This document shows positions 7,716 to 43,473 of a DNA stretch of 64,000 nt, in pieces. A program made the translations under genes and the position numbers. Location of the stretch: NCBI GenBank assembly GCA_958295775.1, contig CATQHC010000007.1:1061-65060 (forward strand), written 5' to 3'. The notes beneath the pieces are model-generated. The model was not told the DNA's origin, made no database searches, and worked only from the letters and a program-made list of their open reading frames with translations. This DNA is from Chloroflexota bacterium (GTDB taxonomy: Bacteria > Chloroflexota > UBA11872 > VXOZ01). Each line of letters starts with the position of its first letter. Positions within the stretch are counted from its first letter, which is position 1.

Positions 7716-7787
7716 TGGGGCGTCGCCAAGCGGTAAGGCACGGGCCTTTGGAGCCCGCATTCGTAGGTTCGAATCCTACCGCCCCAG
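7716..7787 (+). tRNA. tRNA-Gln(TTG)
   Basis: Cloverleaf: acceptor TGGGGCG/CGCCCCA, anticodon arm CGGGC-CT TTG GA-GCCCG, T arm GTAGG-TTCGAAT-CCTAC. CCA is not encoded. Confidence 0.96.
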
Positions 7788-7906
7788 CCGCGGTTTGCTA
7801 GCGGCGCACAAGGAGGAAGGGTGTAGGCGGACTGCGTCCGTAGGACGGCAGCGACTCTCAGCGGCACGAAGCCGGCGCAGCGCGCTGGCGCGGTCCCCGC
7901 GCCGCC

Positions 7907-9319
7907 TTGAAACCCATGACAGAGAGCGACCCAGACCCTCACCAATCCACTGCAGCCATCATTTTGGCTACCGGCCAAACTGGGCGGATGCAGTCTCGTC
8001 GCGCTACGGTCTTGCATGCGCTTGCCGGCCGCCCTATGACGATGTACGCCGTCCAGTCGGCCAACGCGGCCGGGTGCACGGCGGTGTTTGTAGCCTGCAC
8101 CCCTGAAACTTCCCAATTGCACGACTACGTCGGTCCCGCAGCCACCTGCGCCGAGCTGACCGGTTGCAACTGGCTGGAGACGGCGGTGACCGCGCTACCG
8201 CAGGCCGCGCGAACGGTCTTGGTCATTGCCGGCGCCATGCCGCTCCTCTCCGCCGCGACGATGACTCGTCTCATGCAGTGCCAGCAAGAGACTTCAGATT
8301 CGCTGGTACTCCTCACCACCTCCCCCGCCTGCGCACAGCAAGGCGGCGGCATCATCCGTGATGCTGCCGGACGTGTTGCGCGCATCCGCATTGATGAGGG
8401 CACTATGCCAGCGCAACCCCCGGCGGAATACTTCAGTACCGGCGCGGCCTGCTTCTCCGGCGAATGGCTGTGGGAGAATCGAAGCAACATGCAGGCGCTT
8501 ACTGAAAACAGCCTTGAATGCCTTGTCGCGGACGCGCTGGCAGCGGGGGCTCCGGTGGGAACGATGCGCCACGCGGACGCGGAACTCGAGCTGTTGCAAG
8601 TAGTTGACCGAACGGACTTGGCGCGGGCGGAGAGCGCGCTGCGCGAACGGATACGGCGACGCGCGCTGGAGAGCGGTGTAACTTTGGTTGATCCGGCGAC
8701 CGTCTGGATCGATGACACCGTGACGTTTGGGCGGGATGTTACCATCTTGCCCAACTGCCACCTCTACGGGAATTCGGCAGTCGGAGACGACTGTACCATC
8801 GGCCCCAATACCCGTTTGCAGGACACGCGCCTGGCCGCGCGGGTTGCGGTGGTGGAGTCGGTGCTGGAAGGGGCGCAGGTAGGTGAAAACGTGCGCATTG
8901 GGCCATATGCCCATCTGCGCCCGGGAACGATAGTCGCCCATGATGTCGAAATTGGGAATTACGCGGAACTCAAGAATACTCAGGTGGATTCTGGAGCGAA
9001 AATACACCACGTGGGTTACTTGGGTGATACAGTAGTCGGAAGCGACGTGAACGTGGGCGCCGGTACGATCACTTGCAACTATGACGGTGTGGAGAAGCAC
9101 GAAACCGAGATAGGTGACGGCGCTTTTGTGGGCAGCGGCACGTTGCTCGTGGCGCCGGTGGTTGTGGGCAGCAAGGCGATGACCGGCGCCGGTTCAGTGG
9201 TTACACGGGACGTGCCGCCGTCGGCGAAAGTCTACGGCGTGCCGGCGCGGGTGCAGGGAGTCCGCGCGCTGCCAGCGGATTCCGATCAGGCGCGGCCGGA
9301 TGAGAAACGCGGGGCGTGA
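7907..9319 (+). CDS. glmU: GlmU homologue: intact acetyltransferase beta-helix, degenerate uridyltransferase domain
   Basis: C-terminal GPYAHLRPG, IGNYAELKN, HHVGYLGD, GAGTITCNYDG are intact. N-terminal motifs are eroded (see findings). Confidence 0.9.
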   Translation: MKPMTESDPDPHQSTAAIILATGQTGRMQSRRATVLHALAGRPMTMYAVQSANAAGCTAVFVACTPETSQLHDYVGPAATCAELTGCNWLETAVTALPQAARTVLVIAGAMPLLSAATMTRLMQCQQETSDSLVLLTTSPACAQQGGGIIRDAAGRVARIRIDEGTMPAQPPAEYFSTGAACFSGEWLWENRSNMQALTENSLECLVADALAAGAPVGTMRHADAELELLQVVDRTDLARAESALRERIRRRALESGVTLVDPATVWIDDTVTFGRDVTILPNCHLYGNSAVGDDCTIGPNTRLQDTRLAARVAVVESVLEGAQVGENVRIGPYAHLRPGTIVAHDVEIGNYAELKNTQVDSGAKIHHVGYLGDTVVGSDVNVGAGTITCNYDGVEKHETEIGDGAFVGSGTLLVAPVVVGSKAMTGAGSVVTRDVPPSAKVYGVPARVQGVRALPADSDQARPDEKRGA

Positions 9320-9430: not shown

Positions 9431-10759
9431 TTGATTTTGGATCCGTCAAGTTGGGGTCAGATTCTTGGAATTCTCATCCTAACGATACTCAACGGGTTCT
9501 TCGCAGCGACAGAGACCTCGGTGATTACGGTAAGCCGCGCGCGCATCCAACAACTGGCGGATGAAGGCGTAAGAAATGCGCGTATCGTTCGCGGCTTTCA
9601 TCTAAACATCGAGCGATTCCTGACGACCATCCAGATTGCGATCACGACGGTTGGCTTCCTCGCGTCCGCCATCGGCGCGGTGAGCTTCTCGGATGACCTG
9701 GGGCGCGTCATCGGCAACAATCTCGTCGCCCTCATTCTGATCACATTGGCAATTGCCTTCGTCAGCATCGTCCTGGGCGAAATCGTGCCCAAGACGATGG
9801 CAATTACCCACGCCGAGCGCTTTGCCCTGGTCACGGCGCGGGCAATCATGGTCACTCAAACCGCATTCTATCCGCTGGTCTGGCTCATTTCCCGCTCAAG
9901 CAACCTCATCACGCATCGCTTTGGACGAGAAGCCCTCACCACCGTCCCTACAGTCACGGAAGAAGAGATCAAGTTGATGGTGGATACCGGCGGCAAAGAG
10001 GGGGTGCTCGAGGAAGGCGAGCGCGAAATGATCTACGGCGTGTTTGAATTAGGCGATTTGACGGTTGGCGATATTATGTCTCCCCGCGTCGATATTGTGA
10101 CCCTAGAAAGTGACAATACGCTGGCTGACGCTATCCATGCGTCTTCCGACCACGGGTACTCCCGCATTCCGGTCTATGAAGAGACTATTGACAATATCAA
10201 GGGTGTTGTTTATGTAAAGGACATGCTGCCATACGTGCAAGCCAATACGCTCGATACGCTCGTGGGGGACGTAATGCGCGAACCGTATTTCGTGCCAGAG
10301 TCAAAGAAGGTAAGCGATTTCCTGCAAGAAATGCGGCAAAAGCGCGTCCACGCGGCAATCTGTGTGGACGAGTTCGGCGGCGTCGCCGGTCTCGTAACGA
10401 TTGAAGACGTGCTGGAAGAAATCGTGGGCGAGATCCAAGACGAGCACGACGCCGAAGAGCCCCAGGTGGAGATGGTCAACGAACTGGAAGCGATGGTGGA
10501 CCCTGCGGTAAACATGCACGATCTCAACGATGTGCTCGGCATCAATCTTGAGAACGAAGAGGTGGACACCCTGGGCGGTGTGATCTACGCCCATCTCGGG
10601 CGTATGGCAGACGAAGGTGACGAGCTGAAACTCGACGGTATTACGGTGTCAGTCTTAGCGGTCGAAGGCACTCGCATCAAGAAGGTGCTCGTGCGTAAGG
10701 AGCCGGAGCCGAGCCCGTCCGACGAAGGGACAGAAACGAGCGATCAAGCGGAGAATTGA
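9431..10759 (+). CDS. CNNM/HlyC-CorC family protein (DUF21 + 2 CBS + CorC domain)
   Basis: LNGFFAATE, VLGEIVPK, IMSPRVDI, YSRIPVY, VDEFGGVAGLVTIEDVLEEIVGEIQDEHD. Confidence 0.93.
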   Translation: MILDPSSWGQILGILILTILNGFFAATETSVITVSRARIQQLADEGVRNARIVRGFHLNIERFLTTIQIAITTVGFLASAIGAVSFSDDLGRVIGNNLVALILITLAIAFVSIVLGEIVPKTMAITHAERFALVTARAIMVTQTAFYPLVWLISRSSNLITHRFGREALTTVPTVTEEEIKLMVDTGGKEGVLEEGEREMIYGVFELGDLTVGDIMSPRVDIVTLESDNTLADAIHASSDHGYSRIPVYEETIDNIKGVVYVKDMLPYVQANTLDTLVGDVMREPYFVPESKKVSDFLQEMRQKRVHAAICVDEFGGVAGLVTIEDVLEEIVGEIQDEHDAEEPQVEMVNELEAMVDPAVNMHDLNDVLGINLENEEVDTLGGVIYAHLGRMADEGDELKLDGITVSVLAVEGTRIKKVLVRKEPEPSPSDEGTETSDQAEN

Positions 10760-41347: not shown

Positions 41348-42292
41348 CTACTGCTCCGGTCGCAGGACGAGCGCCGCCGCGCCAAGGATGCCGGCGTGTT
41401 CGCTTTCGCCGGCGAGGCGGATGAAAGACTCAATGTCGGGATGTTCGCTGCCGGCAAGGCGCTGAAACCACGCGCGGATCCCCTGAATCAAGCGACCGCC
41501 GTCCTGCATCACGCCACCGGCGAAAACTATACACTCCGGCGCGAAGAGCTGTTGGCAAATCTGGCAGCCGATGGCGAGCCAGCGTGCCGTATCGTCGCGC
41601 ACCCCTTGCATCATCTGGTCGCCGGCTTCAGCGGCGTCGTGCACGGTGAAGCTTGTCAGGCTATCCAAATCACCGCCGGTAAGTCGACGGACAATTTCGC
41701 TAGGTTCATTGGCCGCCGCAGTGCGGCCGCGGCGCGCGATGCCGGGTCCGGCAGCGAGCGATTCCAAGCAGCCGTTGACGCCGCAGTTGCAGAGCGGGCC
41801 GCCCGGATTCACCAGGATATGACCGATTTCTCCCGCAGCGCCCCTACCTCGCACCACCCGTCCGGCTTCGATGATGCCGCCGCCGATGCCGGTGCCGACG
41901 GTAACGTACACCAGGTTCTCCATGCCCTTGCACGAGCCAAATGCATACTCGCCCCACGCGCCGGCGTTGGCATCGTTGGCGATTACTCCCGGAAGACCGT
42001 ACCGGTCCTGCAGCAGCGCAACCAGCGGCAGATTCTTCCAACCAACATTTACAGCCGAGATTGCGATGCCCTGATCCCGGTCCACGGTGCCGGGCACGGC
42101 GATTCCGATGGCGCTGGGCCGCTCCACCGCCTGGACGAGCAGGTCGTCCACCACCACGCAGACACTCTCCAGGATCGTCTCGTGGGAATCCTTGACGATT
42201 GGCGCGCGGCCATGCGCCAGGATGGCGCCGTCGTGGTCGACTATGCCTGCAGCGACTTTTGTGCCGCCAATGTCAATACCGATACCGGTCAT
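41348..42292 (-). CDS. ROK family sugar kinase
   Basis: GIDIGGTK, VPGTVD, NDANAGAWGE, VGTGIGGG, GEIGH, CNCGVNGCLE. Confidence 0.93.
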   Translation of the reverse strand: MTGIGIDIGGTKVAAGIVDHDGAILAHGRAPIVKDSHETILESVCVVVDDLLVQAVERPSAIGIAVPGTVDRDQGIAISAVNVGWKNLPLVALLQDRYGLPGVIANDANAGAWGEYAFGSCKGMENLVYVTVGTGIGGGIIEAGRVVRGRGAAGEIGHILVNPGGPLCNCGVNGCLESLAAGPGIARRGRTAAANEPSEIVRRLTGGDLDSLTSFTVHDAAEAGDQMMQGVRDDTARWLAIGCQICQQLFAPECIVFAGGVMQDGGRLIQGIRAWFQRLAGSEHPDIESFIRLAGESEHAGILGAAALVLRPEQ

Positions 42293-42297
42293 TGCGC

Positions 42298-43473
42298 TTA
42301 CCCTGCTGAGAGCTCCGGATTGCGATAGGCAATTTTGCCCCCTACGAGCGTCAACATTACGCGAAAGTCCTGAGAGAGCACGGCGATGTCGGCATCCGCG
42401 CCGGGGCGAATGGCGCCTTTCGTCTTGCCCAAGCCGAGTTGGCGGGCAGGCACCGCGCTCGCCATGGCAAGCGCGTGCGGCAAGGGTACGCCGGCCTCCA
42501 CATAGACCTTGACATTGCGATTCATCGACGACGCGCTCCCCGTAATCGTACCATCGTCTCGTGTGCCAAGTACCTCAGAAACCGTTACCGTGACGCCGCT
42601 CGCCCGCTGGTAGACGCCCCCCGGCAGACCGGAAAACTCCACGCCGTCGGTAACAAGCGCGACGCGCTCCCAGCCTTTCGCGGCGATAAGCAGTTTTCCC
42701 GCCTCCGGGTCAACGTGCGCGCCGTCGCCAATCAACTCCGCGGTGATTTCCGGGTGCGCCATCACGCCGCCGACGGCGCCGGGATCACGGTGGTGGAGTT
42801 CGCGCATGGCGTTGAACGTATGCGTCGCTTGGCGTACGCCGCTGGCGACCGCTGCCGCCACCTGGGCGAACGTGGCGTCGGAGTGGCCGAGGGAAGGAAC
42901 AATGCCCATGGCAGCGAGGCGCTCTACCAGCCCTAAGCCGCCTTCCCGCTCCGGCGCGACGGTCATGACCTTGATCATGCCCTGCGCAATGTCTTGGAGC
43001 GCTGTGACCTCGTCACTATCGGGTGTACGCATCAGTTCAACGCGCATCGCCCCCGGGCGCTCAGGGCTGAGATAGGGACCCTCCATGTGCACGCCGAGAA
43101 GCTGCGATCCGACGGGCGTAGTCGCAGCATCCCCAATTGTGCGCAACGCCGCCACCGTATGCTCCCACGCCGCGGTGCCTACGGTGGCCAGCAGTCCGGT
43201 CGTGCCCGTCTCGGCGCGGTACGCACAAATTTTGTGGACATCTTCAACCGAGGTCGTGCTGAACGACGCCCCTAACGCCCCGTGCACGTGCATATCGATG
43301 AACCCGGGACAGACGATGCAGTCCGACACGTCAATCGTCTCTGCGGCGTTGTTGTCGGCAGTAATTGCATCAGCGGGGACTACGCGCGCGATGCGGCCGG
43401 CGTCAATGACGACGCTTGTCTGCGCGAGCCTCTGCAGAGGGGTAAAGACGGTGCCACCAGCCAGGACAATCAT
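42298..43473 (-). CDS. nagA: N-acetylglucosamine-6-phosphate deacetylase
   Basis: PGFIDMHVHG, HMEGPY, TVAPE, GHSDA, THTFNAM, DGAHV, LVTD. Confidence 0.93.
   Translation of the reverse strand: MIVLAGGTVFTPLQRLAQTSVVIDAGRIARVVPADAITADNNAAETIDVSDCIVCPGFIDMHVHGALGASFSTTSVEDVHKICAYRAETGTTGLLATVGTAAWEHTVAALRTIGDAATTPVGSQLLGVHMEGPYLSPERPGAMRVELMRTPDSDEVTALQDIAQGMIKVMTVAPEREGGLGLVERLAAMGIVPSLGHSDATFAQVAAAVASGVRQATHTFNAMRELHHRDPGAVGGVMAHPEITAELIGDGAHVDPEAGKLLIAAKGWERVALVTDGVEFSGLPGGVYQRASGVTVTVSEVLGTRDDGTITGSASSMNRNVKVYVEAGVPLPHALAMASAVPARQLGLGKTKGAIRPGADADIAVLSQDFRVMLTLVGGKIAYRNPELSAG

Follow-up and report, generated by a model that had tools for sequence, protein, structure and literature searches.

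A full-length GlmU homologue with a degenerate, probably inactive uridyltransferase domain in an uncultured genus of Chloroflexota

The enzyme GlmU is taken to be bifunctional and universally essential; it counts as a target for antibiotics and as a fixed point when metabolic pathways are reconstructed. Its two halves acetylate glucosamine 1-phosphate (GlcN-1-P) to N-acetylglucosamine 1-phosphate (GlcNAc-1-P) and use the latter to form UDP-N-acetylglucosamine (UDP-GlcNAc). In Staphylococcus aureus, GlmU is weakened by the single substitution Asn169Ser, and the eukaryote-like enzyme NagU makes most of the UDP-GlcNAc (Fong et al., bioRxiv June 2026, 10.64898/2026.06.23.733835). The same preprint reports that many NagU-bearing bacteria lack GlmU wholly or partly, including acetyltransferase-only fragments in bacteria of the Planctomycetes-Verrucomicrobia-Chlamydiae (PVC) group, that among the NagU species surveyed the Ser169 variant occurs solely in Staphylococcaceae, and that alternative routes to UDP-GlcNAc are not rare. 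A GlmU with one non-functional half that is complemented in trans is already established. Here we analyze a GlmU homologue encoded in a stretch of 64,000 nucleotides (the window) of a Chloroflexota bacterium (assembly GCA_958295775.1, contig CATQHC010000007.1, positions 1,061 to 65,060); what is new in this case is the retention of a whole dead domain and an implied uridyltransferase which is not NagU.

Our reading is that the window protein probably acts only as a GlcN-1-P N-acetyltransferase, that its uridyltransferase half is dead, and that UDP-GlcNAc would be made by a separate enzyme. From comparative sequence analysis we infer the loss of uridyltransferase activity, the substrate of the acetyltransferase, the order of the pathway and the identity of the replacement enzyme.

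Loss of the uridyltransferase site

The gene and its parts are located in the window as follows.

7916..9319, + strand: GlmU-like gene, 467 aa from a conserved ATG; the longest open reading frame (ORF) opens at TTG 7907 and has 470 residues
7946..8602, + strand: degenerate uridyltransferase domain of the nucleotidyltransferase fold, residues about 11-229 by alignment to Escherichia coli GlmU
8609..8671, + strand: long connecting alpha-helix, residues 232-252, by DSSP on the AlphaFold2 model
8672..9256, + strand: left-handed beta-helix (LbH) domain, the putative GlcN-1-P acetyltransferase, with the checked residues intact

The window protein was aligned with GlmU of E. coli K-12 (from NC_000913.3), whose numbering is used for the motifs, together with 16 orthologues of the same genus and 12 outgroup proteins of the same class. 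In its N-terminal half, LAAGKGTRM has become LATGQTGRM, with Gly16 and Thr17 swapped or lost and P24-K25 replaced by A-T; Gln76 is lost and the QLGT loop (Q79-T82) is deleted; Y103-G-D105 reads A-G-A and Tyr139/Gly140/Arg141 reads Gly-Gly-Gly; Glu154, Asn169 and Asn227 are replaced by Ile, Ser and Val, and the EYYITD motif is unconserved. A first-pass annotation of the window had listed such motif changes and all of them are present in this alignment, while the retention of Arg18 and Gly14 had gone unmentioned there. It had also described the acetyltransferase residues as intact and the frame as unbroken, and this agrees with what we find: the ten residues checked (R333, E349, K351, H363, Y366, N377, N386, K392, S405 and A423) are invariant in 17/17 proteins, and the frame from 7907 (TTG) or 7916 (ATG) to 9319 is uninterrupted, with no frameshift.

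The losses extend over the whole genus. Each of its 17 species genomes, many of which are single closed contigs, carries one orthologue (in one genome as two matched pieces) with 60-89% identity and identical losses, so that in every one Lys25 and Asp105 are lost, Asn169 is Ser and QLGT is deleted. The uridyltransferase signature L-x2-G-x-G-T-(R/K)-M-x4-P-K is absent from all 17, since Gly16, Thr17 and Lys25 are lost and only Arg18 is kept. The Mg2+ ligands are gone as well, Asp105 being Ala or Thr in 17/17 and position 227 being V, R, E, A or D, and of the contacts to uracil and GlcNAc (Gln76, Gly81, Thr82, Tyr103, Gly140, Glu154 and Asn169) those within 79-82 are deleted and the others replaced, mostly by variable residues. 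Every residue is intact in the 12 outgroups. Among public metagenomic proteins, 21 independent clusters at 90% identity bear the same signature, and the next-best hits, P0023-P0028, keep every residue. Because the 17 genomes and the 21 public clusters agree, chance or sequencing error is excluded. The genus itself is uncultured, and the relatives searched include no other genus from its family or order; the public relatives are metagenome-assembled genomes (MAGs), one of them read as derived from a sponge metagenome, and the genus is of the sponge-symbiont type.

One may ask whether the protein is still bifunctional through a rearranged site, for example with Arg18 and Arg22/Arg23 substituting for Lys25 and other ligands holding Mg2+. 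The retention of Gly104, Pro107 and Gly171 beside Arg18 and Gly14, an intact predicted fold and a ratio of non-synonymous to synonymous substitution rates (dN/dS) below 1 in the N-terminal domain (N-domain) would suit such an enzyme, and the Asn169Ser GlmU of S. aureus retains measurable activity (10.64898/2026.06.23.733835). However, at least ten residues that bind uracil, Mg2+ or the sugar have disappeared jointly, along with the QLGT loop; the replacing residues differ by species, hence no new conserved site has formed; and Arg22/Arg23 are ancestral, as the outgroup L025 has RR in addition to Lys25. A catalytic Lys retained in a shifted register, which had been named beforehand as an observation that would overturn the first-pass inference, was looked for and is ruled out, for the 470-residue ORF is free of Lys from residue 3 through residue 355. 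We therefore regard a bifunctional enzyme as very improbable.

As to a dead site, the former active-site positions 15-17, 76, 83-85, 103, 139-141, 154 and 227 vary among the species of the clade, which fits relaxed constraint rather than a new active site. In one genus member (G010, loci L024/L048), an insertion of about 45 residues of low complexity, rich in Gly, Glu and Pro, lies in the middle of the dead domain. This insertion and the variable positions together speak against a newly conserved site for catalysis or ligand binding.

A case unrelated to the genus was seen in the locus L078 (Chloroflexi MAG Kiruna2_bin-0196), which encodes a GlmU homologue of full length whose N-domain is degenerate (R18 V, K25 L, E154 R, N169 C and N227 T, with D105 kept) and intact acetyltransferase residues. 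As L078 is degenerate independently, degeneration of the GlmU N-domain has arisen more than once.

A retained domain, probably a pseudo-enzyme

The overall architecture is that of GlmU, namely an N-terminal nucleotidyltransferase domain, a long helix and a C-terminal LbH, according to hidden Markov models, AlphaFold2 and Foldseek alike. In Pfam the N-domain is matched weakly by NTP_transf_3 (residues 17-139, 42 bits) and the C-terminal part strongly by Hexapep (87 bits). The NCBIfam model TIGR01173 (glmU) aligns end to end, over model positions 2-433, with 353.5 bits, which falls below its curated equivalog cut-off of 366.85 bits. For a class-wide view, 84 genomes of at least 85% completeness were sampled; TIGR01173 gives 328-358 bits in 15 of the 16 genomes of this genus in the sample and 271 bits, as a partial match, in G010, and the canonical relatives score 377-482 bits with the one exception of G019 at 355. 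Among solved structures, those of GlmU are closest to the window protein (E-values down to 6e-71). The AlphaFold2 model has a mean pLDDT (predicted local distance difference test score) of 88.8, mostly 80-96 in the N-domain and 95-99 in the LbH, and the top Foldseek matches of this model are all GlmU (TM-score 0.80-0.87).

Selection on the gene was estimated by the Nei-Gojobori method from 120 pairs within the genus, with dS about 1.1, i.e. near saturation. The dN/dS is 0.32 in the N-domain, 0.22 in the linker helix and 0.074 in the LbH. Lineage-wide losses, free variation at the former site and the constraint on the LbH together support the earlier suggestion of a monofunctional acetyltransferase with a dead uridyltransferase. 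The term "relic domain", used in that suggestion, is too weak for a domain whose predicted fold is kept and which is under purifying selection: with dN/dS about 0.3-0.45 over saturated dS, the dead domain is a maintained pseudo-enzyme domain and not decaying DNA. Most likely it survives in a structural or stabilising role. In E. coli, GlmU without its first 77 residues (del78) still supplies acetyltransferase activity at a reduced level (PMC4358021), and this reduction fits a stabilising role of the retained domain.

Several observations count the other way. Arg18 and Gly14 are retained, and the N-domain as a whole remains under purifying selection and its first 36 residues are highly conserved, so some function other than scaffolding may be present. 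The ratio of N-domain to LbH dN/dS, 4.3 here, has to be read beside 0.8-3.8 in five control groups of canonical GlmU; since the control ratios reach 3.8, dN/dS was set aside as a stand-alone test and is only supportive. The N-domain is relaxed, yet not beyond what GlmU tolerates, and it is clearly non-neutral. The predicted fold, in turn, comes from an AlphaFold2 input alignment of mostly canonical GlmUs.

Catalytically inactive paralogues exist in the nucleotidyltransferase superfamily, and the dead domain might have been repurposed in a similar way, as a ligand-sensing or partner-binding module that tunes the acetyltransferase or docks a stand-alone uridyltransferase in the style of GMPPA-GMPPB or GalF-GalU. 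Purifying selection over saturated dS, the very strong conservation of the first 36 residues and the presence of GMPPA/GMPPB among the Foldseek structural neighbours are in favor of this idea. We nevertheless hold it unlikely: the positions for binding nucleotide and sugar differ from species to species in the clade, one species tolerates the long insertion described above, part of the 5' conservation lies at synonymous sites and thus at the nucleotide level, and no partner is encoded nearby.

Supply of UDP-GlcNAc and candidate enzymes

The genome has the genes that consume UDP-GlcNAc. With E. coli proteins as tblastn queries, murA, murB, murC, murD, murE, murF, murG, ddl, ftsW, ftsI, ftsA and ftsZ are present; a less stringent tblastn gives a partial match to mraY, Pfam detects MurT/GatD, and MurA is above its cut-off in 84/84 genomes of the class sample. 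The first-pass annotation had left two ways out, another enzyme or no need for UDP-GlcNAc, for instance with reduced peptidoglycan. The latter is ruled out by murA-G, Ddl, FtsW, FtsI, MurT/GatD and the class-wide MurA, and the former gains support from the same mur genes. No second GlmU or uridyltransferase-only paralogue occurs in any genome of the genus. An enzyme of the UAP1/NagU type (PF01704) was found neither in the genome of the window nor in the other 15 genus genomes sampled, and class-wide there is one weak match in 84 genomes, in a search with no positive control among 14 control genomes. If NagU/UAP1 is lacking, the backup enzyme must belong to another family.

The upstream steps of the canonical route are also missing, as GlmS is above its cut-off in 0/17 genus genomes and canonical GlmM likewise in 0/17; the sole phosphohexomutase of the genome is archaeal-GlmM-like (C5:1164-2681; 268.6 bits, below the cut-off). 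Genes for amino-sugar use are present in the window:

42301..43473, - strand: nagA, encoding GlcNAc-6-P deacetylase (TIGR00221, 304 bits against a cut-off of 225.65; tblastn with E. coli NagA)
41348..42292, - strand: ROK-family sugar kinase directly downstream of nagA, a candidate GlcNAc/glucose 6-kinase (TIGR00744, 223.8 bits; cut-off 260)

Elsewhere in the genome, nagB reaches 238 bits where the cut-off is 237. GlcNAc is a constituent of sponge matrix glycans, and importers for it occur in sponge Chloroflexi (PMC6306507). No GH20 hexosaminidase was found in the window's genome with the query from family f2 of the class.

A possible pathway can be assembled from these genes, in which amino-sugar salvage through the ROK kinase and NagA could stand in for GlmS. 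GlcNAc would be phosphorylated to GlcNAc-6-P by the ROK kinase and deacetylated by NagA to GlcN-6-P, for which NagB running in reverse is an alternative source; the archaeal-GlmM-like phosphohexomutase would turn GlcN-6-P into GlcN-1-P; the GlmU-like protein would acetylate this to GlcNAc-1-P; and a stand-alone nucleotidyltransferase, most likely the GalU2 described below, would make UDP-GlcNAc for MurA and MurG. A GHMP kinase translationally coupled to GalU2 may feed hexosamine 1-phosphate directly. The strong conservation of the acetyltransferase half would follow from the need of the salvage route for acetylation of GlcN-1-P.

The low TIGR01173 score and the absence of GlmS and canonical GlmM could also be taken to mean that the acetyltransferase half has changed its job, acting on another amino-sugar phosphate or nucleotide sugar outside UDP-GlcNAc synthesis. 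Such a change has hardly any probability in our view, as none of the positions that bind GlcN-1-P or acetyl-CoA in the E. coli enzyme varies, the LbH has a dN/dS of 0.07, the missing bits fall in the N-domain, and the genome yielded no further candidate for a GlcN-1-P acetyltransferase.

Four stand-alone sugar-1-phosphate nucleotidyltransferases of the genome come into question for the missing uridyltransferase:

C2:958079-958963: canonical GalU (325.6 bits)
C9:897189-898076: GalU2, a diverged GalU paralogue (258.9 bits)
C2:50632-51369: RmlA-like, between ftsY and ffh (168.7 bits to the archaeal GlmU N-domain, the closest of the set)
C2:854936-855646: MurU/GMPP-like

GalU2 and the start of a GHMP sugar kinase gene with a galactokinase-type N-terminal signature overlap by 4 nt (the pair spans C9:897189-899140, outside the window), and the two are adjacent in five families of the class (loci L141-L150). 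Among 41 relatives, orthologues of GalU2 were found in all three lineages without a functional GlmU uridyltransferase domain (f1, f2 and f5). In f2 a GH20 (hexosaminidase-family) gene and a HAD hydrolase gene lie beside the module; in f3, f4 and f5 the kinase is near an MsiK-like sugar ABC ATPase. At four loci, L151, L154, L155 and L157 (f4 g15/g14 and f3 g7/g3), the kinase stands by a DUF624/YesL-like membrane protein, the MsiK-like ATPase and nusA. On this pattern GalU2 is the best candidate for the missing uridyltransferase, an assignment we make tentatively and at somewhat less than even odds.

Alternatively, the RmlA-like protein, canonical GalU or the MurU/GMPP-like protein might act promiscuously, with the GalU2-kinase pair salvaging some different sugar, for example glucuronate or galactose. 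The RmlA-like protein comes closest to the archaeal GlmU N-domain and is 86-99% identical genus-wide in its place between ftsY and ffh, and sponge glycosaminoglycans contain glucuronate (PMC6306507). But rmlB and rmlD are present and give the RmlA-like gene an ordinary role, and it is missing from f2, so it was demoted as a replacement; the MurU/GMPP-like protein was demoted as well, its orthologue being missing from f5, f2 and f4. A role in uronate salvage would leave unexplained why the kinase tracks the loss of GlmS and the dismantling of GlmU, and in f2 the module has the GH20 gene at its side. This alternative is a serious one, yet we consider it doubtful.

The tracking is seen in the class sample, where GlmU has the following states.

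Canonical GlmU: 31 genomes
Full-length GlmU with dead uridyltransferase domain: 16 genomes, the window's genus
Uridyltransferase domain only, about 265 aa: 23 genomes, f6 g10
Uridyltransferase domain with part of the LbH: 4 genomes, f3 g3 and g7
GlmU absent: 9 genomes of f5 and 1 genome of f2

The GHMP kinase occurs in 53/53 genomes with non-canonical or absent GlmU vs 8/31 with canonical GlmU, and in 25/26 genomes without GlmS. In f4, where one genus is split, five genomes have the kinase only, nine have GlmS only, one has neither and none has both, i.e. the two are mutually exclusive. The other lineages show other ways of dismantling GlmU. In f6 g10 the uridyltransferase-only ORFs have about 262-268 aa (e.g. 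G054:C1:70508-71224 and G037:C1:1643427-1644146), the opposite of the dismantling in the window's genus; in f3 g7 and g3 the uridyltransferase with partial LbH forms open frames of 369-420 aa (e.g. G030:C11:32264-33268 and G018:C24:17850-18872); and in f5 g5 and f2 g2 there is no GlmU at all, with MurA present throughout.

These patterns fit a hexosamine salvage bypass. More specifically, a class-wide two-gene bypass is conceivable, in which a GHMP-family anomeric hexosamine kinase and, in most lineages, a GalU-family UDP-GlcNAc pyrophosphorylase would make UDP-GlcNAc from scavenged hexosamine; on comparative genomics we rate it as possible rather than likely. To our knowledge, no bacterial GlcNAc/GlcN 1-kinase of the GHMP type has been described, and no bacterial GlcNAc-1-P uridyltransferase of the GalU type. 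If the bypass is true, it would have let the GlmS-GlmM-GlmU route be dismantled repeatedly and in different ways: by death of the uridyltransferase in the window's genus, by reduction to the uridyltransferase domain alone or with a partial LbH (f6 g10; f3 g3/g7), by complete loss of GlmU (f5 and f2), and by loss of GlmS in three lineages.

On the side of the replacement enzyme, too, there are points that lower the weight of this picture. The assignment of GalU2 draws on the phyletic pattern and gene coupling, and GalU2 was mapped in the 41 relatives and 20 kinase loci rather than across the 84-genome sample. GalU2 and the kinase are apart in f4 and in f3 g3/g7. Searches of NCBIfam and PDB with the GHMP kinase returned no characterised close relative, only distant HddA, mevalonate kinase and galactokinase. 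The non-canonical lineages are few (6 genera) and phylogenetically dependent, and the PF01704 search has the limit given above.

Surroundings of the gene and comparison with known systems

The start of the gene deserves a remark. The first-pass annotation placed it at TTG 7907, which indeed opens the longest ORF, but the conserved ATG at 7916 is the likelier start. Public gene models of the window gene and its three closest relatives start at Met41 (8036; 427 aa) and so cut away the first beta-strand and the former P-loop; those of other species start at the conserved ATG and have 465-468 aa. That the first 40 codons are translated is shown by the substitution pattern over codon positions and by an in-frame 3-nt indel in L047. 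Two features precede the gene.

7716..7789, + strand: tRNA-Gln (anticodon TTG), directly upstream of the GlmU-like gene (ARAGORN; Rfam tRNA, 63.9 bits)
7790..7915, + strand: conserved leader from the tRNA to the start codon, from a DNA alignment of 11 genus loci

The leader contains an invariant block with AAGGAGG and one to three copies of a small hairpin unit, GCGTCC-GTA-GGACG; apart from the tRNA, no Rfam family matched there. The first 12 codons are nearly invariant at the DNA level genus-wide, with a synonymous codon identity of 0.85, which is 0.70 for codons 13-36 (the first about 36 codons being 7916-8023 in the window) vs about 0.55 elsewhere. The leader and the 5' codons may form an element that acts at the RNA level, in regulation or processing, and is shared with the tRNA transcript. 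The order of tRNA and then glmU is also seen in L029, a relative of another family. Downstream, 9431-10759 encodes a DUF21-CBS-CorC type protein, as read from its translation. In L054 (Dehalococcoidia MAG OY762251.1), GlmU is fused with a CBS/CorC-type protein like this one in one open frame of 894 aa, and for this reason the glmU-corC neighbourhood appears to be old.

What this case means for annotation is that behind a full-length "GlmU" call there can be an enzyme with one half dead, so that automated annotation either overcalls the UDP-GlcNAc pathway or resorts to a generic name; one member of the public clusters is called by NCBI only "NTP transferase domain-containing protein". If our reading is right, the case adds a phylum outside the preprint survey, and an enzyme family other than NagU, to the alternative bacterial uridyltransferases, and GalU2 with the GHMP kinase makes a concrete candidate pair for a new route of UDP-GlcNAc salvage. 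As GlmS is absent from 17/17 genomes, these symbionts are predicted to depend on amino sugars from the host or community, or on reversal of NagB, which bears on the uncultured status of the genus.

Compared with the bifunctional GlmU of E. coli, Streptococcus pneumoniae and Mycobacterium tuberculosis (TIGR01173), the window protein shares the two-domain architecture, the predicted fold, 30-33% identity and an acetyltransferase active site identical at every checked position, but it is without the uridyltransferase signature, the Mg2+ ligands and the residues binding uracil and GlcNAc, and it scores under the cut-off. The S. aureus system resembles it in that a full-length GlmU has an impaired uridyltransferase half and the identical Asn169Ser change, and in that the cell relies on a separate uridyltransferase, the last being presumed for the window's genus. 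However, the S. aureus enzyme is only weakened, by one substitution, whereas the window protein has lost about ten residues and a loop; and S. aureus is backed up by NagU, while the PF01704 search, which had no positive control, found no NagU/UAP1 in this genus. Truncated, acetyltransferase-only GlmUs, known from PVC bacteria (10.64898/2026.06.23.733835), some Bacteroidetes (Renzi et al. 2015, PMC4358021) and E. coli del78, which shows that the LbH half can work by itself, would have the same net function, but there the N-domain is physically gone, whereas the lineage of the window keeps the whole domain, predicted to be folded and under selection. GMPPA of humans, eIF2B gamma/epsilon and GalF, a weak paralogue of GalU, belong to the same superfamily and likewise keep an inactive nucleotidyltransferase domain, in a non-catalytic role; they differ in being stand-alone regulatory subunits for which the binding of a ligand or partner is documented, and the ligand-binding positions are unconserved here. 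Finally, Capnocytophaga canimorsus (PMC4358021) is also host-associated and builds peptidoglycan without a complete GlmS-GlmM-GlmU route from salvaged GlcNAc, yet it is the mirror image of the present case, having kept the uridyltransferase and lost the acetyltransferase and the mutase, with GlcNAc auxotrophy as the result.

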